Shown one piece after another: positions 2,834 through 30,553 of a stretch of DNA of 37,712 nt. The notes under the pieces are model-generated. The model saw only the letters and a program-made list of their open reading frames with translations. It searched no databases and had not been told where the DNA came from. This DNA is from Candidatus Lightella neohaematopini (GTDB lineage: Bacteria; Pseudomonadota; Gammaproteobacteria; Enterobacterales; Enterobacteriaceae). Both the position numbers and the translations under genes were made by a program. Each line of letters opens with the position of its first letter. The stretch's first letter is position 1. The stretch spans positions 1 through 37,712 of the forward strand of contig JAOBJS010000001.1 in assembly GCA_025728375.1 (NCBI GenBank), written 5' to 3'.

Positions 2834-3070
2834 ATGAATTATATTAAATTAATCCAAACTATTTTAGTTGTTGGTTGTTTTTCTTTAGTTGGTTGTTCTA
2901 ATAAGAATAAAATTAATCAAATATCTTCAGAGGTTAAAACATTAGATACAAAGTTTAATAAAATTAGTAATGATGTGGATAATATGCATTCTGACATACA
3001 AAATGCTAAAAATAATGCGGTTAGAGCTAATCAAAGATTAGATAATCAGATCACTAACTATCGTAAGTAA
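2834..3070 (+). CDS. lpp: Major outer-membrane (Braun) murein lipoprotein Lpp
   Basis: The track ORF starts at 2801, but AAGGAAGG lies 5 nt before the ATG at 2834. The product MNYIKLIQTILVVGCFSLVGC|SNKNKINQISSEVKTLDTKFNKISNDVDNMHSDIQNAKNNAVRANQRLDNQITNYRK has a lipobox (LVGC), the Lpp heptad repeats, and the C-terminal YRK with the peptidoglycan-linking Lys. Confidence 0.95.
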   Translation: MNYIKLIQTILVVGCFSLVGCSNKNKINQISSEVKTLDTKFNKISNDVDNMHSDIQNAKNNAVRANQRLDNQITNYRK

Positions 3071-3084
3071 AACTTTGTTATGTT

Positions 3085-3119
3085 GTAGAATAACGTTTAG
3101 CTAATATACGTTATTCTAC
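3085..3119. terminator. Perfect 12-bp stem hairpin between convergent lpp and sufE
   Basis: GTAGAATAACGT (3085-3096), an 11-nt loop, then ACGTTATTCTAC (3108-3119), an exact reverse complement. It contains more G/C than its surroundings. No clear U-tract on either strand, so its role as a terminator is inferred from position. Confidence 0.5.
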
Positions 3120-3168
3120 TAAATGATGTATGTATTTACATTTATAATACACAATATATTTCTTAAGA

Positions 3169-3576
3169 TTAAATAATTAAGTGTTGTTTTGCTTGGTCTC
3201 TTATATTTTTAATTATTGATCGCAAACCATGATTTCTAGATATAGTCAAATATTTATTTAAATTCAAATTATTTAATAATGGATATACATTAAAATTAAT
3301 TAATTCTGTTAAGCTTAAGTCTTTGTATAAAATAAAGACTACGGCAATTAATCCTTTTACTATTAAAGCATCGCTATGTCCTTGTAAATTAACTTTATTA
3401 TTGTAGTTATTTAAAACTATCCAAACTTGACTTTGACAATCAGAAATTAAGTATTTAGATATTTTATATTTATTAGGAAATAATGGTAATTTTTGTCCTA
3501 ATTCAATTAGATATAAATATTTTTCTTCCCAAGAAAAACAGTTATTAAAATTATATATTAATTGTTTTTGGTTCAT
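3169..3576 (-). CDS. sufE: Cysteine desulfuration protein SufE (sulfur acceptor)
   Basis: 135 aa. The conserved persulfide-acceptor Cys context (SDCQSQVWI) is as in E. coli SufE. It is the last gene of the suf cluster. Confidence 0.9.
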   Translation of the reverse strand: MNQKQLIYNFNNCFSWEEKYLYLIELGQKLPLFPNKYKISKYLISDCQSQVWIVLNNYNNKVNLQGHSDALIVKGLIAVVFILYKDLSLTELINFNVYPLLNNLNLNKYLTISRNHGLRSIIKNIRDQAKQHLII

Positions 3577-3591
3577 TATTATTTACTTAAT

Positions 3592-4824
3592 TTAAGTAAT
3601 TAATATTTTATTAATCTTTGTTAAGATATCTACTAATTTATCTATTTCAAAATAATCATTATACATAGCTAACGATATTCTACACATACTATTAACTTTA
3701 AAATAATTCATAATTGGCAATGCACATTGATGACCAGTGCGAATAGCAATACCATAAATATCTAATAAACTACCTATATCATAAGCGTGATGTGTTCCTA
3801 AATTAAAAGAAATTACACTAATTCTATTATACGTAATAGATCCATAAATTTTTATATTAGGAATATTATTTAAAACATCAAAAGCATATTTAGTTAACAA
3901 CTGTTCATGTAATGCAATTTGTTGTAATCCAATATCTTTTATATAATCAATAGCAGCACCTAATCCTATAATACCAGCAGTATTGGGTGAACCAGCTTCA
4001 AATTTCCATGGTGCTTGATTAAAGGTAGTTTCTTCTGTTAAACTAACATTTTTAATCATAGCACCACCAGTCTCCCAAGGAGACATACTATCAAGTAAAT
4101 ATTTTTTACCATATAATATTCCAATACCAGTTGGACCATACATTTTATGACCTGAAAATACATAAAAATCACAATTTAATAACTGTACATCAACTTTTTG
4201 ATGCATAATACATTGTGCTCCATCAACTAGTACTAAACTATTGCTAATATTTTTTACTTGATTAATAATATCTTTTATTGGATTAATAATACCTAATACA
4301 TTTGATACTGCAGTAATAGCAAATAAACGAGTATTATTATTTATTAATGATGATAACTGTGATAAATCTAAAGTACCATTCGGTAGTAATGGTATATATT
4401 TAAGAAATAATTTTTTTTCTTTTGCTAGTATTTGCCAAGGTACAATATTAGCATGATGTTCCATTTCTGTAATAACAATACTATCCCCAGGATACAAAAA
4501 TTTTCTACCCCAACTATAAGCAACTAAATTAATACTCTCAGTTGTACCCTTAGTAAATATAATTTCTTCAGTTTGTTTAGCATTGATAAAATTAGCTATC
4601 TTACAACGTACTTGCTCTACTTTATTAGTTGCTTCACGACTTAATGTATGAATACCTCTATGAACTGCTGCATATTCATATTTATAATAATCCATTTCAC
4701 GTTCTATTACATAATTAGGTTTTAATGAGCTTGCTGCATTATCAAAGTATACTAACTGATTATTATTTATTTTTTTATTTAAAATAGGAAAATCTAATCT
4801 GATTTTTGATATGGGATATATCAT
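3592..4824 (-). CDS. sufS: Cysteine desulfurase SufS (group II, PLP-dependent)
   Basis: 410 aa. PLP-Lys motif SGHKMYGPTGIG and catalytic Cys motif RTGHQCALP, with synteny between sufD and sufE. Confidence 0.95.
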   Translation of the reverse strand: MIYPISKIRLDFPILNKKINNNQLVYFDNAASSLKPNYVIEREMDYYKYEYAAVHRGIHTLSREATNKVEQVRCKIANFINAKQTEEIIFTKGTTESINLVAYSWGRKFLYPGDSIVITEMEHHANIVPWQILAKEKKLFLKYIPLLPNGTLDLSQLSSLINNNTRLFAITAVSNVLGIINPIKDIINQVKNISNSLVLVDGAQCIMHQKVDVQLLNCDFYVFSGHKMYGPTGIGILYGKKYLLDSMSPWETGGAMIKNVSLTEETTFNQAPWKFEAGSPNTAGIIGLGAAIDYIKDIGLQQIALHEQLLTKYAFDVLNNIPNIKIYGSITYNRISVISFNLGTHHAYDIGSLLDIYGIAIRTGHQCALPIMNYFKVNSMCRISLAMYNDYFEIDKLVDILTKINKILIT

Positions 4825-8428: not shown

Positions 8429-10801
8429 TTACCTTAGATATGCACCAAATCTCTGCTTTAATTTTAAAAAACACTTATTAACAATACCAGATATTTCATT
8501 TTCTTCTAAATTACGAGAATAATTTTGTATTTTTATACTAATAGTAACACTTTTATAACCTTTAGAAATATTACTACCTTTATACACATCAAATATTTTA
8601 ACATTAATTAAACTGGTATCAATACATTTTTTGCATTCTTTGATAATATCAATAGATAATATATCATCTGAAACTATAATAGATAATTCTCTATAACTAA
8701 CTGGATACTTAGATAATAAATTAATTTTTCTATTTTTTTTAAATTTATTAATATAATTCCATAATAACTCAAAAACTAATATTTTATTTGATGAAGATAA
8801 TTTTTTTTGTATTAGTGGATGAATAGTGCCAATTAAGCCTATATAAGTATTTTTAAAAAAAATATACGAACTTTGTCCTGGATGCAATAATGGATCATTA
8901 CAAACCCTAAATTCTATATTATCTATTATATCAGTTAAAGTAAATATTGATTCTAAATCACCTTTAATATCGTAAAAATCTAATAATCTATTAGATAGAT
9001 TCCAATGTTTATATGAATAATTACCATAAACTAATCCTGATAACATAAAGTTCTGTATAATACGATTACTATTATTATAGTTTTTATTATAAGAAAAACA
9101 AAATCCTGATTCAAATAAACGAATACATTGTAATTGTCTATTTTTATTATAGATTAATGCTTGAATTAATCCAGGTAATAAAGATAACCTCATAGATGAC
9201 ATATTCATATTTATTGGATTAATTAGTTTAACTAATTTTTTGTTTGGATATAACAAAGTTTGTAATTGTTTATCAGTAAAACTATAACTAATAATTTCCT
9301 GATATCCTTTATCTACTAATAACATTTTGGTACGATCTAATAATGTTGATAACTTGAATTTAGATAACGTTATATATTTATTATTATTTAATTTATTATT
9401 ATAAATATTATCAAAACCACGTATACGTATTAATTCTTCAATTAAATCTTCTTCTTGTAATAAATCATGACGCCAACTAGGAGAACAAACATACCAAGAA
9501 TATTTTTTTTTATCAACTAAACAACCAATGTTATATAACATATTATTTATATCATTATTTGGTATTTTAACTCCAGTTATTTTATAAAATTTACTTTCTT
9601 TTAGTATTATTTGGTTATTTTTTGGTAATAATTTATTATAGGTTACACTTGTAATTGGTCCTGGAATACCACCATATATTTTTATTAATAATTCAGTAGT
9701 TTTTTCTATAACAACTGCTACTAAATGGTAGTCCAATTTATTCATAATAATGTTAAAATTATTATTTGTAGTGAATTTATTAATATAATTAATACTATCT
9801 AAAGTATTAAAAAAAGCACAATTAATAACTATATCTATATTATCATTAACATTATTAGATAACTCTAAATAAGATAATGTTTTTTTATGGTTAGAAATTA
9901 CTATATTCTTAGGTAAAAAATTTAATTTATTTTGCTCTATGTTATCAGTTGATTTTAACTTACGAACTATAATTCCATTATTAACAATATTTTTATTAAA
10001 AATCATTACTACATAACCTAATTCTAGAAAAATATAATTGATAATATCTAAAATAGAAAATGTTAACTTTATACCTACTCTACGTAATTTCTCTAATAAC
10101 CATATAGGTAATGGATTGTTAAGACTAATATTTTTAATTATTCTTGATAAATAAATTGGACATATACAAGGAACTTTTACATTAACTTTAACAACATCTT
10201 TTATTTTTGGTGGTATTATATTATAATAACTAAGTAAGTTAAATTTAATATTATTAAGTGTTAATATTTCCCTAGCTAATCCTAAAACATTATAACAATC
10301 AATTCTATTAAATGGAATATTAATATTAATAATGTTATCATTTAAATTTAAGTATTTTTTTACATTATAACCAATTGGAGCATCATGTGGTAATGTTATA
10401 ATATTATTACCATATTCATTAATACCTAAATCTAAGAATGAACACAAAATACCTTCTGATAATATTCCGTTTATTTTAACATATCTAATATATTTATGTA
10501 CCACAGTAGTTGCTCCTACTGGAGCAACTACTACTTTAGTATTAACATTAACTATTATATTGTCTAAAATAATATTAATAGTTTTACAACCAATATTAAT
10601 TTTTAATAAAAATAAATTATTTAATTTTGATAAATATTTAATTTCTGTAATAGTACCAATTACTAACCCTGAAATATTACTATTAACTAATAAATTAACA
10701 TTATCTACTTCAAATCCTGATATAGTTAATTTATTAATTAAAGAATTTATATTAATATTTAAATTTGAAATCTCACGTAACCAAAGTTCACTAAATATCA
10801 T
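8429..10801 (-). CDS. pheT: Phenylalanine--tRNA ligase beta subunit
   Basis: 790 aa (about 795 in E. coli). MIFSELWLRE N-terminus, and it lies directly downstream of pheS. Confidence 0.93.
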   Translation of the reverse strand: MIFSELWLREISNLNININSLINKLTISGFEVDNVNLLVNSNISGLVIGTITEIKYLSKLNNLFLLKINIGCKTINIILDNIIVNVNTKVVVAPVGATTVVHKYIRYVKINGILSEGILCSFLDLGINEYGNNIITLPHDAPIGYNVKKYLNLNDNIININIPFNRIDCYNVLGLAREILTLNNIKFNLLSYYNIIPPKIKDVVKVNVKVPCICPIYLSRIIKNISLNNPLPIWLLEKLRRVGIKLTFSILDIINYIFLELGYVVMIFNKNIVNNGIIVRKLKSTDNIEQNKLNFLPKNIVISNHKKTLSYLELSNNVNDNIDIVINCAFFNTLDSINYINKFTTNNNFNIIMNKLDYHLVAVVIEKTTELLIKIYGGIPGPITSVTYNKLLPKNNQIILKESKFYKITGVKIPNNDINNMLYNIGCLVDKKKYSWYVCSPSWRHDLLQEEDLIEELIRIRGFDNIYNNKLNNNKYITLSKFKLSTLLDRTKMLLVDKGYQEIISYSFTDKQLQTLLYPNKKLVKLINPINMNMSSMRLSLLPGLIQALIYNKNRQLQCIRLFESGFCFSYNKNYNNSNRIIQNFMLSGLVYGNYSYKHWNLSNRLLDFYDIKGDLESIFTLTDIIDNIEFRVCNDPLLHPGQSSYIFFKNTYIGLIGTIHPLIQKKLSSSNKILVFELLWNYINKFKKNRKINLLSKYPVSYRELSIIVSDDILSIDIIKECKKCIDTSLINVKIFDVYKGSNISKGYKSVTISIKIQNYSRNLEENEISGIVNKCFLKLKQRFGAYLR

Positions 10802-12421: not shown

Positions 12422-12964
12422 TTATTTTTTTTGCGGGGTTAACATAATACTAATTTGTTTTCCTTCAATCCTTAATAAAGAATTATCCATAATGATTAAT
12501 TTATGTAAATCATTTTTCATACGTTTTAACATATCAATACCAATTTGTTGATGTATAATTTCCCTACCCCTAAATTTTAGAGTTACTTTTACTTTATTAC
12601 CCCGATTTAAAAGTCTAATAATATTACGTAACTTAATATTATAATCATTTTCTTGTGTGTTAGGTCTAAATTTAATTTCTTTAATATTTAAAGATTTTTG
12701 TTTCTTTTTTTGTTCTTTAATTAATTTACTTTTTTCATATATAAATTTACCATAGTTTATTATTCTACAAACAGGTGGAACAATATTAGGATTTATTTCT
12801 ATTAAATCAGAATTCAATTTACTTGCTCTAAGTAAAGCATCTTGTAAACTAACAATACCAATTTGTTTTAAATCTATATTAATCAAACGAACCTTATCTG
12901 CTTTTATTTCTTCGTTAATTCTATTTTTGCACTTAATTAATTTTGACTTAATGTTAATTTTAAT
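12422..12964 (-). CDS. infC: Translation initiation factor IF-3, with an AUU start codon
   Basis: The track ORF starts at an internal TTG (12886). The frame is open upstream to a stop at 12967-12965. Extending to ATT (12964-12962) gives IKINIKSKLIKCKNRINEEIKADKVRLINIDLKQIGIV.. and a 180-aa product, the same length as E. coli IF3 and aligning to ..RPNRINGEIRAQEVRL... GGGAG (12973-12969) lies just upstream. ATT at 12958-12956 is an alternative start. Confidence 0.88.
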   Translation of the reverse strand: MKINIKSKLIKCKNRINEEIKADKVRLINIDLKQIGIVSLQDALLRASKLNSDLIEINPNIVPPVCRIINYGKFIYEKSKLIKEQKKKQKSLNIKEIKFRPNTQENDYNIKLRNIIRLLNRGNKVKVTLKFRGREIIHQQIGIDMLKRMKNDLHKLIIMDNSLLRIEGKQISIMLTPQKK

Positions 12965-12976: not shown

Positions 12977-14212
12977 TTAACTTTGAATTAAATAATTACT
13001 TATCTCATATTTAACTTTTTCTATAAAATTATTAATACTTATAATATAAAAATTTTTATTTTTACTAGTTCTAACTGATAATTTTTTTGATGATATTTCT
13101 TCATTACCACAAACAATTATATACGGTATTTTACAAATTATATATTCTCTGATTTTAAAACCTAATTTTTTGTTTCTAGTATCTATTTTAGTCCTTATAT
13201 TTAAGGATATTAAAATTTTTCCAATTTCATTTACATAACTATATTGATTAATACCTATATTTGTAATAACTACTTGTATTGGTGCTAACCATATTGGATA
13301 AAATCCAGCATACTCTTCCGTAATTATCCCTATAAAACGTTCTATTGAGCCTAAAATAGAACGATGTATCATAATTGGAGTACTACGAGAATTATTTTTA
13401 TTAATATAATAGGCATCTAAACGATTTGGAAGAAAAAAATCTAACTGTATAGTACCACATTGCCAAAATCTTCCTAGTGAATCTAATAATATAAACTCTA
13501 TTTTTGGTCCATAAAAGGCACCATCCCCTAATTGATAATCAAAAATTATATTATTTCCTTTTAAAGAATCAACTAATTTTTTTTCAGCCCAATTCCATGT
13601 ATTATCATCACCAATTCTATACTTTGGTCTAGTTGATAATTTAACTTTAATATTTTTAAAACCAAATATATTGTAGACATAATATATCATTCTGATGCAA
13701 TTACTAATTTCATCATATATTTGTTCTTCCGTACAAAATATATGCGCATCATCTTGAGTAAAATTTCTAATGCGCATTAATCCATATAAAGATCCAGATG
13801 GTTCATTTCTATGACAACTACCAAATTCTGCTATTCTTAAAGGTAGATTACGATAAGATTGTATTGTTTGATTAAATATCTGTATATGTCCTGGACAATT
13901 CATAGGTTTAATACAATATTCTCTATTTTCTGAACTAGTAGTAAATATATTATTTGAATAATTATCCCAATGACCTGTAATTTTCCATATATTTTTATCC
14001 ATCATAGATGGACACTTAACTTCTTGATAAGAGAAATTTTTTAATTGTAGTCTGATAAACTTTTCTAATTCTTTAAATATAATTAATCCATTATTATGCC
14101 AAAATATCATCCCAGGTGCTTCTTCTTGAATATGATATAAATCCATTTGTTTAGCAATTTTTCGATGATCACAAAATGAAATGTTATTTTTATTATAAAT
14201 AGTCTGGCACAT
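12977..14212 (-). CDS. thrS: Threonine--tRNA ligase, N-terminally truncated: catalytic core and anticodon-binding domain only, with no TGS/N1 or N2 editing domain
   Basis: 411 aa versus about 642 in E. coli. It starts [42 protein letters not shown], which equals the E. coli region near residue 240. Class II and zinc-site motifs are retained ([32 protein letters not shown]), as is the C-terminal anticodon-binding domain. An in-frame stop lies 6 codons upstream of the ATG. Confidence 0.92.
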
Positions 14213-14410
14213 TAAATTTCTAAAAATTAATTAATTGAATTGTTAAAATTATATTTATCTAGTAAAATATCATCCTTATAAAGAAACTTCAATATATCTA
14301 TGTTTAATTTTGTTAACCTAAATGTATGAATTATAATTTGTTATAAATCATTAACAAAATAATTATTTTATAAATGTAATTTTAATAAATTATAGTAATT
14401 ATTTATAATT

Positions 14411-14887
14411 ATGACAACCGAAGGACATATTTGTTTTGCTATATCTAGTATAATTTTAATAAAAAAAATTAAATTAATAAATTTTATAACTAGTGGTGAT
14501 TGGTGGCACGTTATTTTAGGTAGCTTAATAACATGTTTATTACCGGATATAGATCATCCAAAATCATTTATAGGAAAAAGATTTAAGTGGTTATCTATAC
14601 CGATTTATAAACTTTTTGGACATAGAAGTTTCACTCATAGTTTATTACTAATAATTATAATAATAATTTACGTAAATATTAGAAAAATTAATATTTCTGT
14701 AGATGTGATTTACGCAATGATTATAGGATATATTAGTCATATCATTGCTGATATATTAACTCCTGCAGGAATTCCATTATTTTGGCCATATAGTAAAAAA
14801 TTTAGTATACCAATAATAAAAAAATCTAATGTTAGATTGGAAAGATTAATATCTATAATTATTATTATATACGCAATACAATATTAA
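14411..14887 (+). CDS. ydjM: YdjM-family inner-membrane metal-dependent hydrolase (function unknown)
   Basis: 158 aa. MTTEGHICFAIS..GDWWHV..LLPDIDHPKSFIGKRFKW..FGHRSFTHS..GYISHIIADILTPAGIPLFWPY closely parallels E. coli YdjM. Confidence 0.85.
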   Translation: MTTEGHICFAISSIILIKKIKLINFITSGDWWHVILGSLITCLLPDIDHPKSFIGKRFKWLSIPIYKLFGHRSFTHSLLLIIIIIIYVNIRKINISVDVIYAMIIGYISHIIADILTPAGIPLFWPYSKKFSIPIIKKSNVRLERLISIIIIIYAIQY

Positions 14888-16833: not shown

Positions 16834-17047
16834 ATTAAATAAATGTAATAACAAAATAAAATGTTAAATTAATTAGAGTTAGTAATCTAACATTATTTTT
16901 ATATATTATCAACAAATTAAATTATTGTTTTTGGTTTTATTAATTTTTAATTTATGTTTATATAATGTATATTAGATTATTACGAAATAGTAATTTAGTT
17001 TAGATAAAATTTAACATAAATATTGATTAACAAAAGGACAATTATAT

Positions 17048-18424
17048 ATGAATACATTATTCTCATTAATTAAAGTATTTGTAATTACTATTGTTACTTT
17101 ACTTAGTAATATTAATATTTATGCATCTTTTCCTTTAACTAATATGAACAGCTCTAATAATGTTCCTAGCTTGTCTTCTATGATAAATAAAGTACTACCA
17201 GCAGTGGTTAATATGCATATAGAGGGCACACAAATTATTAGACAATCAATCTTACCTAAAGAATTTAGATATTTTTTTGGACCTAATATACCTAATAATA
17301 ATAGCGTACGTCAATTTGAAGGATTAGGATCTGGTGTAATTATAGATGCTAACAATGGCTATATTATTACTAATAATCATGTAATACATAATGCTGATAA
17401 AATTAAAATTCAGTTACATGATGGAAGAGAATTTTATGCTAAATTAGTTGGATGTGATGATAAAACTGATTTAGCTTTGTTAAAAATATCTAATCCAAAT
17501 AATTTAACAGAAATTAAAATAGCTGATTCTGATAACTTAAAAGTTGGTGATTTTGTTATTGCAATTGGTAATCCTTTTGGCTTAGGTCAGACTGTAACAT
17601 CAGGTATTGTATCTGCTCTTAGTCGTAGTGGGTTAAATTTAGAAGGATTAGAAAATTTTATACAAACTGATGCTTCAATAAATAGGGGTAATTCTGGTGG
17701 TGCTTTAATTAATTTGAATGGTGAATTAGTTGGTATTAATACAGCTATTTTAGCTCCTAATGGAGGTAATATTGGTATTGGATTTGCTATTCCTAGTAAT
17801 ATAGTAAAAAGTTTAAGTGAACAGTTAATTAAATATGGAGAAATTAGACGTGGTCAGTTAGGTATAAAGGGGACAGAATTAACAGCTGATATAGCAAATG
17901 CTTTGCAAATTAGTACTCAACATGGTGCTTTTGTTAGTGAAGTAATAGTAAACTCAGCAGCTTATAAAGCTGGTATTAAAGCAGGAGATATAATTATTTC
18001 AATTAATGGTAGAAAAATTAAAAATTTTGCAGAATTAAGAGTAAAAATTAGTATTACTAATCCTGGAGATACTATTGTAATTGGTGTATTAAGAGATAAT
18101 AAAATTAATAATATTTCTGTTACATTAGAAGATGGCAATAGTCAATATAATAATAGTATAGAAGAAATTAGCAATATACCTATTTTACAAGGAGCTTTGC
18201 TAAGTAATAACTACAGTAAAATAAAAGGAGTATTAGTTAATAATATAATAAAAAACTCTTCAGCATTTAATATTGGTTTACAAAAAAATGATATAATAGT
18301 TGGTATTAATAAGGATAGCATTGATAATATTCAACAATTAAAAAAAATTCTAAGTAAAAAATTACCTGTTATAGTATTTCATATTATTAGAGGAAAAACT
18401 AATATGTTTTTATTAGCCAATTAA
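17048..18424 (+). CDS. degQ: Periplasmic serine endoprotease of the HtrA family (DegQ/DegP), protease domain plus two PDZ domains
   Basis: 458 aa with a signal-like N-terminus and the catalytic triad contexts NNHV (His), DLALLK (Asp) and GNSGGALIN (Ser). Called degQ rather than degP from its size and its position between rplM-rpsI and murA, as in E. coli. Confidence 0.85.
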   Translation: MNTLFSLIKVFVITIVTLLSNINIYASFPLTNMNSSNNVPSLSSMINKVLPAVVNMHIEGTQIIRQSILPKEFRYFFGPNIPNNNSVRQFEGLGSGVIIDANNGYIITNNHVIHNADKIKIQLHDGREFYAKLVGCDDKTDLALLKISNPNNLTEIKIADSDNLKVGDFVIAIGNPFGLGQTVTSGIVSALSRSGLNLEGLENFIQTDASINRGNSGGALINLNGELVGINTAILAPNGGNIGIGFAIPSNIVKSLSEQLIKYGEIRRGQLGIKGTELTADIANALQISTQHGAFVSEVIVNSAAYKAGIKAGDIIISINGRKIKNFAELRVKISITNPGDTIVIGVLRDNKINNISVTLEDGNSQYNNSIEEISNIPILQGALLSNNYSKIKGVLVNNIIKNSSAFNIGLQKNDIIVGINKDSIDNIQQLKKILSKKLPVIVFHIIRGKTNMFLLAN

Positions 18425-18433
18425 TCAAGTACT

Positions 18434-19699
18434 TTATGTATGCAATTTAGTATTAACTAGTCTAATATTTGCACCAATTAATTTTAATTTTTTTTCTATA
18501 GAATCATAACCTCTATATACATAATGCGTATTATGTACAGTAGTAACTCCTTGAGCTATACAGCCAGCTAATATTAAACTAATTGACGACCTTAAATCAG
18601 TAGCCACCACATCTGTTCCAAATAATTTTTTAACTCCATAACATAATACGGTATTACCTATTATTTTTGCTTTTGCTCCCATTTTAATTAATTCAATAAT
18701 ATGTCTAAAACGATTTTCAAATATTGTTTCAGTAATTTTACTAGCTCCATTAGCAACTAAATTCAATAAACTAAATTGAGCTTGCATATCTGTAGGAAAT
18801 CCTGGATATGGGGATGTACGTATTATAACACCATTAGGGCGCCTACCATGCATATTTAAGCTTATCCAATTTTTACCAGTTCTAATATCAGCACCGGCTT
18901 CATATAATTTAATTAATACTTCATTTAATAAAGTGGGATATGTTGAATAACAAGTAATATGTCCTCTAGAAATAGCTGCAGCTACTAAAAAAGTACCAGT
19001 TTCTATTCTATCTGGTAATATTTTGTAAACACCACCATTAAGATAATTAACTCCATTTATTATAATTTTATTAGTACCTGCTCCATATATTTTAGCACCT
19101 AAAGTAATTAAAAAATTAGCAGTGTCAATTATTTCTGGTTCTTTAGCTGCATTATCTATTATCGTAGTACCAATGGCTAATGTTGCAGCAATCATGATAG
19201 TTAAAGTTGCTCCAACACTAATTTTACTCATATTTATATAAACTCCTTTTAACTTTCCTGATACTGATGCTTTAATATATTTATCTTTTACAGTTATATT
19301 AGCTCCTAATTTTCTTAACCCAAATAGATGAAGATCTATTGGTCTTGCACCAATAGCACATCCACCAGGTAATGGTATTATACCATAGCCAAATCTGGCT
19401 AATAATGGACTTAGTATCCATATAGATGCACGTATGTTATTTGATAAATAATATGGACAACAGATATCTATATTTTTAGGATTAATATATATTGATTTAC
19501 TTTTTTTAATTTTTACGCCAAGCTTATTTAATAATTTTATTGCTATATCAATATCTTTTAATTTAGGTATATTTTTTATTTCTACAATATTTTCTGTTAA
19601 CAATGTAGCAAATAGTATTGGCAAAGCAGAATTTTTTGCACCAGAAATATTTACTTTTCCACTTAATTTAGTTGGGCCATAAATATAAAATTTATTCAT
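18434..19699 (-). CDS. murA: UDP-N-acetylglucosamine 1-carboxyvinyltransferase
   Basis: 421 aa. [10 protein letters not shown], and the active-site Cys context [15 protein letters not shown]. Confidence 0.96.
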
Positions 19700-19721
19700 T
19701 AAATTTTAGTTTATATAAATA

Positions 19722-19976
19722 TTAATTGTTTTTCTTATCATTATAATTTTTCCATTCATTTTTAGTATATGTTGTGATTGATACAGAATGAATAATATTA
19801 TTTTTTATATACTTAGCTAATGGTTTATAAACTTCTTGCTGTCTTTCTAATGTACTTAAATTAATAAAACTATCTTTTATTATTGTGATACATAAATGAT
19901 TATCGTAATTATTAATATAATATTCGTCAGGAGATAAATAATCTAATAAATCTTTCTTTATTTCTTCTATATTCAT
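19722..19976 (-). CDS. ibaG: BolA-family protein IbaG (YrbA)
   Basis: 84 aa, the same length as E. coli IbaG, and immediately upstream of murA as in E. coli. The sequence itself is poorly conserved. Confidence 0.7.
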   Translation of the reverse strand: MNIEEIKKDLLDYLSPDEYYINNYDNHLCITIIKDSFINLSTLERQQEVYKPLAKYIKNNIIHSVSITTYTKNEWKNYNDKKNN

Positions 19977-20205
19977 AATTATTTTACTGAAATATTTAAT
20001 AATATAGATAATTATAATTATAATAAAGTTATATAAAAATTTTTACCGACAATAAATTATACAATATTTAATATTGTAAATAAAATATTAATTAGCATAA
20101 TAAATGTATTAATTCATAATAATATATTGTATTGTAACAACTATAATTTTATATTAAATGATTAAAATTATATTTTATTAACTTTGTTATACTATTGGAA
20201 CTTAT

Positions 20206-27682: not shown

Positions 27683-30553
27683 ATGGATAATCATTATAAT
27701 CCAAAAGATATAGAACAATCAATATATAGGTACTGGGAAAAAAACAATCTATTTCAACCAACTAAAAATAATAAAAAAAATTATTGTATTGTTATACCTC
27801 CTCCTAATATTACAGGAAAATTACATATTGGTCATGCTTATCAGTACACTTTAATGGATATACTAATTAGGTACAATAAAATGCAAGGAAAAAACACTTT
27901 GTGGCAAATGGGTACTGATCATGCTGGTATTGCTATGCAAATTACAGCTGAAAAAATATTAAAGAATAAATATAATAAAATTAGAACAAATTATAGCCGT
28001 GAGGATTTTATTAAAGAAATATGGAAAATAAAGGATAAATTTAGTAACTATATTAATTATCAAATTAAAAGATTAGGTAATTCTGTATATTGGGGTAATA
28101 ATCGATTTACTTTAGATTATAATATGTCATCTTCGGTAAAATCAGCATTTATAAAGTTATATAATGATAACTTAATATATAAAGGTAAAAAATTAGTAAA
28201 TTGGGATTTTAAATTAAAAACTGCTATTTCTGATTTAGAAGTAGTTAATCGAGAACGTATTGGTAATATGTGGTATTTAAGATATCCATTAGCTAATAAT
28301 CAACTTACCATAAATAATTTAAATTATTTAGTTGTAGCAACTACACGTCCAGAAACAATGTTAGGTGATGTTGCTATTGCTGTTAATCCTTATGACAATC
28401 GTTATCAAAATTTAATTGGCAAATATGTTATATTACCAATATTAAATAAAAAATTACCAATTATAGCAGACAAATATGTAGATATTAAAAAAGGTACTGG
28501 TTGTGTAAAAATTACTCCAGCACATGATTTTAATGATTATGATATTGGGAAAAAACATAATTTATTAATAATTAATGTATTTTCAAAAAATGGTACTATA
28601 TTAAATAAACCTGAAATATTTAATAAGAACGGTGTAGTAGATAATGATAATAAAAATATTTATAATATACCTTATTATCTACAAGGATTAGATAGATTTA
28701 AAGCTCGTAATATTATTATAAACAAATTAAAAGATTTAAACTTAATAGATGATATTAAATTACATAAATTAGTTGTTTCTTATAATAACCGTAATAATGA
28801 AATTATTGAACCACTACTAACTAATCAGTGGTATATGCGTACCAGTAAATTATCAAAATTAGCTATTAATCTTGTTAAAGATGGATATATTAAATTTATT
28901 CCAAAACATTATGAAGATTTATATTTTAGCTGGATGAAAAATATACAAGATTGGTGTATTTCAAGACAAATATGGTGGGGTCACCGTATTCCAGCCTGGT
29001 ATGATATTAAAAATAATGTATATGTTGGTAATAATGAACAAGAAATAAGATTATTATATAATATAGATAAAAGTATTACATTACATCAAGATGATGATGT
29101 ATTAGATACATGGTTTTCTTCTTCATTATGGACTTTTGCATCATTGGGATGGCCTAAAAATACTATTTTATTAAAAATGTTTCATCCAACTAATTTAGTA
29201 ATAAGTGGTTTTGATATAATATTTTTTTGGATTGCTAGAATGATTATGTTAACATCTTATTTAGTTAAAAATCATAGTAATACAATTAATATACCATTTA
29301 AAACAGTATATATTACTGGATTAGTATGCGATGAGCTTGGACAAAAAATGTCAAAATCTAAAGGAAATATTATTGATCCTATAGATATAATAGATGGTAT
29401 ATCATTAAGAAATTTAATTTATGAACGTGTTAGACAAGTAACTAATTTTACTGCAATTAAAAGTATTATAAAATATATCAAAAATAAATTTCCTAATGGA
29501 ATTAATGCATATGGTGCTGATGCTCTACGTTTTGCTTTAACAGCTATGTCATCAGCACACAAAAATATTAATTATAATATTAATCAAATATCTAGTTATT
29601 ATAATTTTTGCAATAAATTATGGCAAGTTAGTAGATTTGTATTACTAAATAGTGAAAATTTTTGTAATTATAAATTATCTTCTCTATCTTTAATAGATAA
29701 ATGGATACTAATAGAATTAAATAAGACAGTAAAAAATTTTAAATTTGCATTAGATAGTTATCGTTTTGATATAGCTGTTAATATATTATACACATTCATA
29801 TGGCATCAATTTTGTGATTGGTATATTGAATTAGCAAAAATTAATATTAAATATGGTTCGTTATTAGAAATTAAATATACTAAAAATACTCTATTATTAG
29901 TTTTAAAACAAATATTACTATTAACTCATCCGATTATTCCATTTATCACAGAACATATATGGCAATGTATTAGTAAAAAATTTGATAATAATCAATCTAT
30001 TATATTACAACCATTTCCAAATTATAAAGCATATAATAAAAATATTAATGATATAAATATAATTAATAGTATCAATTTAATAAAAAACATTATTTACACT
30101 ATTAGAAAAATGAGATCAGAAATAAATATAAATAACAATGTACTAATAAAAATTATTCTTAGTAATACTTCTATTGAAGAAGAATTAATAATATTAAATA
30201 ATAGTAAATTTATTAAAAATATAGCTAAATTAAATTCAATTACTATATTAAAAAATAATAAAAAATATAATTATATTCATATTTTTGAGAAAATAAATAA
30301 TATTAAATTAATTATACCATTAAGTAATTTAGATAAAAAAGTATTATATTTTAGATTAGACAAAATTGAATCTTATTTAGTTAAGATAGAAAAAAAAATA
30401 TATATTCTAAATCAAAAATTATTCAATAATAAATTTATAAAGTATGCACCTAAAATAATTATAAACGATGTAAAAAATAAATTAGAAAAATATAATGAAA
30501 TAAAATTAACTTTAATAAAACAAAGAACGTTAATATCTGACTATATAAAATAA
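27683..30553 (+). CDS. valS: Valine--tRNA ligase (full length, CP1 editing domain present)
   Basis: 956 aa. HIGH (GKLHIGHAY), KMSKS (QKMSKSKGN), editing-domain motifs ATTRPETMLGD and TPAHDFNDYDIG, and a C-terminal coiled-coil tail. Confidence 0.96.
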   Translation: MDNHYNPKDIEQSIYRYWEKNNLFQPTKNNKKNYCIVIPPPNITGKLHIGHAYQYTLMDILIRYNKMQGKNTLWQMGTDHAGIAMQITAEKILKNKYNKIRTNYSREDFIKEIWKIKDKFSNYINYQIKRLGNSVYWGNNRFTLDYNMSSSVKSAFIKLYNDNLIYKGKKLVNWDFKLKTAISDLEVVNRERIGNMWYLRYPLANNQLTINNLNYLVVATTRPETMLGDVAIAVNPYDNRYQNLIGKYVILPILNKKLPIIADKYVDIKKGTGCVKITPAHDFNDYDIGKKHNLLIINVFSKNGTILNKPEIFNKNGVVDNDNKNIYNIPYYLQGLDRFKARNIIINKLKDLNLIDDIKLHKLVVSYNNRNNEIIEPLLTNQWYMRTSKLSKLAINLVKDGYIKFIPKHYEDLYFSWMKNIQDWCISRQIWWGHRIPAWYDIKNNVYVGNNEQEIRLLYNIDKSITLHQDDDVLDTWFSSSLWTFASLGWPKNTILLKMFHPTNLVISGFDIIFFWIARMIMLTSYLVKNHSNTINIPFKTVYITGLVCDELGQKMSKSKGNIIDPIDIIDGISLRNLIYERVRQVTNFTAIKSIIKYIKNKFPNGINAYGADALRFALTAMSSAHKNINYNINQISSYYNFCNKLWQVSRFVLLNSENFCNYKLSSLSLIDKWILIELNKTVKNFKFALDSYRFDIAVNILYTFIWHQFCDWYIELAKINIKYGSLLEIKYTKNTLLLVLKQILLLTHPIIPFITEHIWQCISKKFDNNQSIILQPFPNYKAYNKNINDINIINSINLIKNIIYTIRKMRSEININNNVLIKIILSNTSIEEELIILNNSKFIKNIAKLNSITILKNNKKYNYIHIFEKINNIKLIIPLSNLDKKVLYFRLDKIESYLVKIEKKIYILNQKLFNNKFIKYAPKIIINDVKNKLEKYNEIKLTLIKQRTLISDYIK

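Follow-up and report, generated by a model that had tools for sequence, protein, structure and literature searches.

A threonyl-tRNA synthetase without N1 and N2 domains in the louse symbiont Candidatus Lightella neohaematopini

An N-terminally deleted form of Escherichia coli threonyl-tRNA synthetase (ThrRS), deltaN, has been engineered and is reported to be active, to mischarge serine, and to be unable to repress thrS translation (Dock-Bregeon et al. 2000; Caillet et al. 2003). Here we describe a natural counterpart, encoded by the thrS gene in a 37,712-nucleotide stretch of DNA from Candidatus Lightella neohaematopini (contig JAOBJS010000001.1 of assembly GCA_025728375.1, positions 1 to 37,712; hereafter the window). 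The Lightella protein begins at practically the same boundary as deltaN (residues 242-642 of E. coli ThrRS; PDB 1EVK, 1EVL, 1FYF and 1KOG) and has the same domain content, zinc ligands and motifs. What sets the Lightella form apart from the construct is its natural origin: it is chromosomally encoded, no second copy was found, and selection has kept it throughout a co-speciating clade. Sucking lice of chipmunks carry Lightella neohaematopini as an obligate symbiont; its genome has ~463 kb, 22.2% G+C and ~440 protein genes (PMC9376444), and the G+C content of the window is ~20%.

Shortened or editing-deficient ThrRS enzymes have been described outside the bacteria. Yeast mitochondrial MST1 has no post-transfer editing, and Ser-tRNA(Thr) accumulates in vitro (PMC4267643). 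MST1 is not orthologous to the Lightella protein (3ugq_A, E 8.6e-85, versus 4e-183 for E. coli ThrRS) and, as a nuclear-encoded enzyme, is needed for a handful of mitochondrial proteins; the Lightella enzyme has a whole bacterial proteome of ~440 proteins to supply. Crenarchaeal ThrRS-cat is likewise shortened and without an N-terminal editing domain (PMC7373986). Crenarchaea, however, keep editing in trans (ThrRS-ed, DTD-like), and no such partner is in evidence for Lightella; moreover, the archaeal ThrRS editing domain is unrelated to bacterial N2.

Editing-defective LeuRS, PheRS and ThrRS have reportedly been found in Mycoplasma (Li and colleagues in 2011, Yadavalli and Ibba in 2013). That Mycoplasma and other host-restricted bacteria have lost synthetase editing is established (PMC10057733, PMC7373986, PMC4014445), and the subject was surveyed by Melnikov et al. 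2018, whose results are taken here as conveyed by two reviews (PMC10057733, PMC7373986). Lightella is not mentioned in this literature, to the extent that the reviews convey the survey. Like these organisms, Lightella is host-restricted with a reduced, AT-rich genome, and the editing sites of at least two of its synthetases are deleted or degenerate; unlike the Mycoplasma-type cases, its ThrRS module has been cleanly excised as a whole rather than point-mutated. Lightella ThrRS thus adds a fresh example to the known loss of editing in host-restricted bacteria.

Architecture and conservation of Lightella ThrRS

The thrS gene occupies positions 12977..14212 on the minus strand and encodes 411 amino acids, as delimited by its open reading frame, Pfam and NCBIfam TIGR00418. 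The gene is a bacterial-type class II ThrRS orthologue: the TIGR00418 thrS equivalog model scores 539.8 bits against a cut-off of 383.65, with model positions 169-564 of 565 covered, and the gene order thrS-infC-rpmI-rplT-pheS-pheT in the window matches the E. coli map. Pfam recognised the catalytic core and the anticodon-binding domain and nothing else. The class II core (tRNA-synt_2b, PF00587; 13310..13945, minus strand) spans residues 90-301 with E 4e-59 and retains the zinc ligands and motif 2, and HGTP_anticodon (PF03129; 13010..13276, minus strand) spans residues 313-401 with E 7e-16. Neither TGS (PF02824) nor tRNA_SAD (PF07973) matched the thrS product in Pfam up to an E of 1.

Alignment with E. 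coli ThrRS (1qf6_A) places Lightella residues 14-406 on residues 242-634 with 62% identity, and the 401-residue deltaN construct 1evk/1evl aligns with the Lightella protein end to end. A 14-residue N-terminal stub (14171..14212, minus strand) precedes the residue aligned with E. coli D243. The columns of the N2 residues H73, H77 and C182 are gaps in Lightella. The synthetic site is preserved. Identical in both proteins (E. coli numbering) are the zinc ligands C334, H385 and H511, the motif 2/ATP-site residues R363, E365, R375, Q381 and D383, and the threonine-site residues Y462, K465, Q484 and R520; the anticodon contacts N575, R583, E600 and R609 are also conserved. V376I was the sole substitution among the catalytic residues checked, motifs 2 and 3 included. 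In 107 full-length relatives, 229 core columns are conserved to 97% or more, and 206 of these are retained in Lightella. Lightella ThrRS is a natural minimalist architecture from which the N1 and N2 domains of canonical cis-editing are both gone.

The region upstream of the gene holds no trace of the missing part. An in-frame TAA (14231..14233, minus strand), read directly, lies six codons above the thrS ATG, and no ATG, GTG or TTG is found among these six codons. The intergenic region between thrS and the divergent ydjM (14213..14410; 198 bp, 11.6% G+C) contains no open reading frame of at least 30 amino acids. Ten full-length ThrRS proteins of enterobacteria supplied the tblastn queries, each cut to its N-terminal 242 residues. 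No credible remnant of the ThrRS N-terminal domains was detected across the whole window, the best match (E = 0.16) falling inside an unrelated LptA-like reading frame, and in the 198-bp gap no score exceeded that of shuffled sequence. The E. coli chromosome has ydjM and thrS in the same relative orientation, but there ydjM is 7.6 kb away on the upstream side, and arpB to hxpB fill the space; compared with this arrangement, Lightella has lost the arpB-hxpB interval plus the first ~700 bp of thrS. These results fully bear out what the original prediction, made from the letters of the window, had said of the gene: a 411-residue product that starts at the catalytic core near E. coli residue 240 (residue 14 aligns with residue 242), a stop six codons above the ATG, a non-coding 198 bp up to ydjM, and N1/TGS and N2 that are absent rather than frameshifted. 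Of the genome-wide search it had suggested for TGS and editing domains, the part that covered the thrS product (Pfam) and the window (tblastn) found nothing credible.

The truncation is fixed among the Lightella sequences available to us. The closest proteins are the ThrRS of Lightella neohaematopini metagenome-assembled genomes, with 90-98% identity and lengths of 403-411 amino acids. Six further isolates (L217, L207, L222, L220, L208 and L201) have the same thrS ATG, which is conserved in 7/7 sequences, and encode products of 407-411 amino acids. In these six the thrS frame opens just 15-24 nucleotides upstream of the shared ATG, with ydjM lying divergently ~190-200 bp upstream and infC-rpmI-rplT-pheS-pheT downstream. 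The agreement of the junction across seven independent assemblies excludes misassembly, which the original prediction had wished to see checked. Aligned orthologues, which it had proposed as a means of dating the deletion, show the truncation in all seven Lightella sequences.

The thrS gene is under strong purifying selection. The ratio of nonsynonymous to synonymous divergence (dN/dS) between Lightella strains is 0.07-0.11, at synonymous divergence (dS) of up to ~0.5, and is the lowest in a comparison with neighbouring genes, six in all (pheS, pheT, serC, ydjM and rpsI gave 0.16-0.29). The low dN/dS, together with the intact catalytic residues, argues for a functional synthetase rather than a decaying remnant, and Lightella ThrRS is almost certainly a working enzyme, in agreement with the earlier expectation that a protein with intact core, zinc site and anticodon domain would probably be active. 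Neither thrS nor the synthetases find mention in the Lightella genome paper (PMC9376444). Its BUSCO table, for isolate L207, scores threonine--tRNA ligase as 'Missing', most likely as a result of the truncation. Truncated yet functional core genes can thus depress the BUSCO completeness of symbiont genomes.

Other symbionts and other synthetases

Similar proteins are encoded by other bacteria. The Blochmannia of Colobopsis nipponica has a ThrRS of 404 amino acids that starts MDIGDHRK, and that of C. obliquus one of 414 amino acids that starts MDARDHRK, whereas the ThrRS of Blochmannia vicinus is full length (642 amino acids). The 410-residue ThrRS of Candidatus Providencia siddallii, a leech symbiont (OZ034688.1), begins MFNLKENFKNDHRK, and a symbiont in Logan SRR27234917 has a 430-residue ThrRS whose first residue corresponds to E. 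coli Met214 (MLEYIS versus MLQRIY). These organisms are, like Lightella, enterobacterial nutritional symbionts and have kept the order thrS-infC-rpmI-rplT-pheST. Westeberhardia, Buchnera, Gullanella and Sodalis-type symbionts encode full-length ThrRS. Across the lineages the deltaN proteins start 4, 10, 14 and 30 residues before the equivalent of D243. Since start points and upstream neighbours vary, and Blochmannia vicinus and free-living Providencia are sisters with full-length ThrRS, the sequences indicate that deltaN ThrRS arose independently in at least three further symbiont lineages besides Lightella. The original prediction, which had named yeast mitochondria as the main known source of naturally editing-less ThrRS, was therefore too narrow on this point.

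The gaps upstream of these genes differ in what they contain. In P. siddallii, ydjM is again the upstream neighbour of thrS, and the gap measures 1041 bp with 8% G+C (2960-4000 of the stretch examined). Within it, N2 residues 68-133 have a match that is broken by stops, lies on the correct strand and is ~20 nucleotides off the collinear position, and N2 residues 170-205 have a weaker collinear one; the HxxxH and CxxxH editing motifs are destroyed. Because the match is collinear, we consider that the gap probably holds a decayed N2 remnant, an intermediate stage of the same domain loss, whereas the Lightella gap is without any. The gap upstream of thrS in the SRR27234917 symbiont is 1161 bp long (12% G+C). 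In the gaps of Lightella, Blochmannia and the SRR27234917 symbiont, tblastn with the N-terminal domains gave matches no better than shuffles.

An exhaustive HMMER search returned many more ThrRS proteins of 400-430 amino acids that start at the catalytic core, several of them AT-rich and symbiont-like, which carried no names or context. GC-rich representatives (~400-420 amino acids) were left out of the evidence, as they may be second copies or fragments. Two candidates were set aside. Candidatus Stammera capleta (CP144825.1, 2314-4182 of the stretch) was dropped as a deltaN case when its thrS was seen to be spread over at least four open reading frames; the pieces, in a locus of 13% G+C, include an 85-residue frame that by eye resembles a ThrRS start (TGS), and the breakage could reflect a pseudogene, homopolymer slippage or assembly errors. 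Likewise not counted was a 429-residue protein that starts MLQRIYG, is 64% identical to Lightella ThrRS and is ordinary in composition, with no AT bias; an artefact of gene calling or a fragment is the most likely explanation.

Some further observations concern the ThrRS proteins themselves. Residue 20 of Lightella ThrRS corresponds to E. coli G248, which is conserved in 97% of the 107 full-length relatives and replaced in 4/4 deltaN lineages, by Ala in Lightella and by Asn in the other three. The equivalent of W271 is Leu in both Lightella and P. siddallii. These changes may reflect released constraint at the former domain junction, or AT bias. Metagenome-assembled genomes of DPANN archaea (Woesearchaeota, Pacearchaeota and Nanoarchaeota) encode ThrRS of 564-583 amino acids, counted from the first ATG, with a core 44-52% identical to that of Lightella and a different N-terminal domain of ~170 amino acids (MKILSLHCDYIKFKP), presumably the archaeal-type editing domain.

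Two other synthetases in the window bear on the specificity of the loss. PheRS beta (pheT, 8429..10801, minus strand) is full length at 790 amino acids and has a B3_4 domain in Pfam. The editing residues and both signature motifs of PheRS have been defined (PMC3553970). All six residues are replaced in Lightella (R244K, H265M, G318N, E334N, T354N and A356F), and the motifs QPxHxFD and GVMGGxxS/T are both unrecognisable. The changes are common to the two other Lightella strains that were aligned, with minor variants in one, and they parallel the PheRS of Mycoplasma mobile, in which similar changes accompany a demonstrated absence of editing (PMC3553970). It is probable from these replacements that Lightella PheRS has also lost editing. 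H265 and A356 are also replaced in the Blochmannia of C. nipponica and the SRR27234917 symbiont. AlaRS is full length by the coordinates in the BUSCO table of the Lightella genome paper.

ValRS (valS, 27683..30553, plus strand; 956 amino acids) served as an internal control and has kept its editing residues. T222, R223, D230, K277 and D286, chosen on the basis of ValRS editing mutants, are all identical to E. coli, and the CP1 region is 54% identical compared with 50% overall. The original prediction was right that ValRS keeps its CP1 editing motifs and that PheRS beta is full length. It had read both as signs of a loss specific to ThrRS, and this does not hold for PheRS beta, in which both editing motifs are destroyed. 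As these motifs are destroyed and the ThrRS module is absent, proofreading appears to be relaxed in at least two Lightella synthetases and ThrRS is not alone.

Regulation and flanking features

Translational repression of thrS reportedly requires the N-terminal domain of ThrRS (Caillet and colleagues, 2003). In E. coli, the thrS mRNA carries a structured operator resembling the anticodon arm of tRNA(Thr), by way of which ThrRS represses its own message (PMC11088916). The 221 nucleotides upstream of Lightella thrS gave a fold z of +0.30 relative to shuffles, compared with -3.03 for the E. coli thrS leader. A scan of the window at Rfam gathering thresholds returned six tRNAs only, with no leader or operator family and no tRNA-Thr. 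Given the unstructured leader and the absent N-terminal domain, a loss of E. coli-type thrS autoregulation in Lightella is plausible and fits what had been foreseen.

Upstream of thrS lies ydjM (14411..14887, plus strand; PF04307), its divergent neighbour. The intergenic region shows 88-89% mean column identity among Lightella strains, which probably reflects two divergent promoters. The best sigma-70-like match upstream of thrS (TTGTCA-17-TATAAT, 11/12; 14389..14417, minus strand) is largely invariant among strains; it is no more than an agreement with the consensus, and matches overall are no more numerous than in shuffles. On the thrS side, a block at ~14262-14310 is near-invariant in the seven Lightella strains, while the flanking genes diverge at 0.23-0.37 synonymous substitutions per site. 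The block contains TTGAAG-17-TATTTT and a four-codon mini-ORF, ATG ATA TTT TAC TAG (14273-14259), and is possibly the thrS promoter.

Downstream, infC (12422..12964, minus strand) carries Pfam IF3_N and IF3_C and probably starts at an ATT 12 nucleotides past the thrS stop; with rpmI, rplT, pheS and pheT it forms the remainder of the conserved thrS operon. Its frame opens directly after a TAA and reads IKINIKSKLIKCKNRINEEIKA; the first canonical start, TTG at 12886, would remove ~26 residues. The IKINIKSKLIKCKNRINEEIKA sequence may correspond to NRINGEIRA, which lies close to the N-terminus of E. coli IF3. An AUU start is a known autoregulatory feature of E. coli infC. On the scale of the window, the cumulative GC skew has its minimum near 17 kb (region ~17000-20000), and gene orientation is mostly minus at 1-16.9 kb and mostly plus at 17-30 kb; the switch at ~17 kb may mark a replication origin, a terminus or a rearrangement boundary.

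Interpretation and implications

The reading that we favor, with a probability of roughly 0.78, is that Lightella has a single functional thrS from which reductive evolution removed N1/TGS, the N2 editing domain and most of the linker helix, and that Ser-tRNA(Thr) editing went with them. The enzyme would be a dimeric class II core that has kept threonine activation via the zinc site and recognition of the tRNA(Thr) anticodon. Hydrolysis of Ser-tRNA(Thr) takes place in N2 in bacterial ThrRS, and the Lightella enzyme would have no site left for it, so that post-transfer editing would be gone and serine would be misincorporated at threonine codons at an elevated yet tolerated rate; charging would be somewhat less efficient owing to the lost acceptor-stem contacts. 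Deletion of the editing domain has been reported to leave activation intact, to make charging less efficient, and to leave only pre-transfer editing (PMC4267643). In the E. coli, yeast cytoplasmic and yeast mitochondrial enzymes, pre-transfer editing alone is reportedly insufficient (PMC4267643). In E. coli, the C182A editing mutation of ThrRS hardly impairs growth, and replacing Thr by Ser is regarded as a mild change (PMC10057733). Together, the studies of the editing domain and the mild effect of the replacement suggest that a tolerated, elevated level of Ser-for-Thr is the most likely state in Lightella.

A route to the present gene can be proposed. The 5' part of thrS would have been inactivated, with translation re-initiated internally, probably at the conserved codon for Met214. 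This old codon may survive as the Lightella ATG, and ~15 codons of the linker helix would have been deleted downstream of it. The dead 5' region would then have eroded, and would finally have been deleted until 198 bp separated thrS from ydjM.

Several points weigh against this account. The Met214 origin of the Lightella start rests on a match of four of six residues (MCQTIY versus MLQRIY in the E. coli Met214 segment). The loss of editing activity and the mistranslation are deduced from the missing domain, and the restart route and the loss of autoregulation are inferred as well. The P. siddallii remnant scores 23.9 bits, a value equalled by 1/60 shuffles, and is weak on score. Finally, no sister lineage with known thrS length was found, which leaves the loss undated.

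It is improbable that mischarging is avoided without N2, through stronger pre-transfer hydrolysis of Ser-AMP or an active site of higher selectivity. The idea has some precedent among mitochondrial synthetases, higher selectivity being reported for the PheRS of yeast and the LeuRS of human mitochondria (PMC4267643), but the Lightella active-site residues that were checked match E. coli except for V376I and give no sign of a remodelled pocket, and the insufficiency of pre-transfer editing in three types of ThrRS also speaks against it. Considerably less probable still is that the system is split and that editing is encoded elsewhere, by a free-standing N2-like or AlaX-like domain or another deacylase. 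Archaea offer a precedent for such an arrangement (PMC7373986; PMC4267643), but the genome has only ~440 protein genes, of which 19-23 are hypothetical (PMC9376444). D-aminoacyl-tRNA deacylase is 'Missing' by BUSCO in isolate L207, and tblastn over the 37.7-kb window gave no credible match to a ThrRS TGS or editing domain. The destruction of the PheRS editing motifs points to a general relaxation rather than a relocation of editing. In addition, we know of no free-standing bacterial ThrRS N2 domain.

We give hardly any credence to the explanation that the short gene is an artefact or dying, that is, a misassembly, an annotation error or a pseudogene, in which last case the host or a co-symbiont would provide ThrRS activity. 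In its favor one could cite that the assemblies are drafts built from metagenomes, that BUSCO calls thrS 'Missing', and that a Neisseriaceae-related co-symbiont is present in some lice. However, the identical junction in seven independent sequences, the selection on thrS and its intact catalytic residues are difficult to reconcile with it, and substantial co-symbiont drafts were obtained from just two samples, with a few kb in most (PMC9376444).

The functional, non-editing thrS that we favor for Lightella may belong to a wider pattern, a view for which we consider the case evenly balanced. Under it, excision of N1-N2 would be a recurrent, channelled outcome of symbiont genome reduction, proceeding via re-initiation just upstream of the catalytic core (at the Met214 codon in some lineages) and subsequent 5' erosion. 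It would co-occur with decay of PheRS editing and leave whole proteomes without proofreading of Ser-tRNA(Thr) or Tyr-tRNA(Phe) and with no replacement. The lineages could then form a series, from the decayed remnant of P. siddallii through the unrecognisable 1.2-kb gap of the SRR27234917 symbiont to the 200-250-bp gaps of Lightella and the Colobopsis Blochmannia.

The recurrence and the P. siddallii intermediate are the most interesting additions to what was known of editing loss. The case suggests how a multidomain essential gene can shorten without loss of function, and the pattern supports the idea that, of the functions in translation, proofreading is one of the earliest that host-restricted bacteria lose. 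A natural deltaN-ThrRS that serves a complete proteome would allow a direct test of how much Thr-to-Ser ambiguity is tolerable and of compensation by pre-transfer editing.

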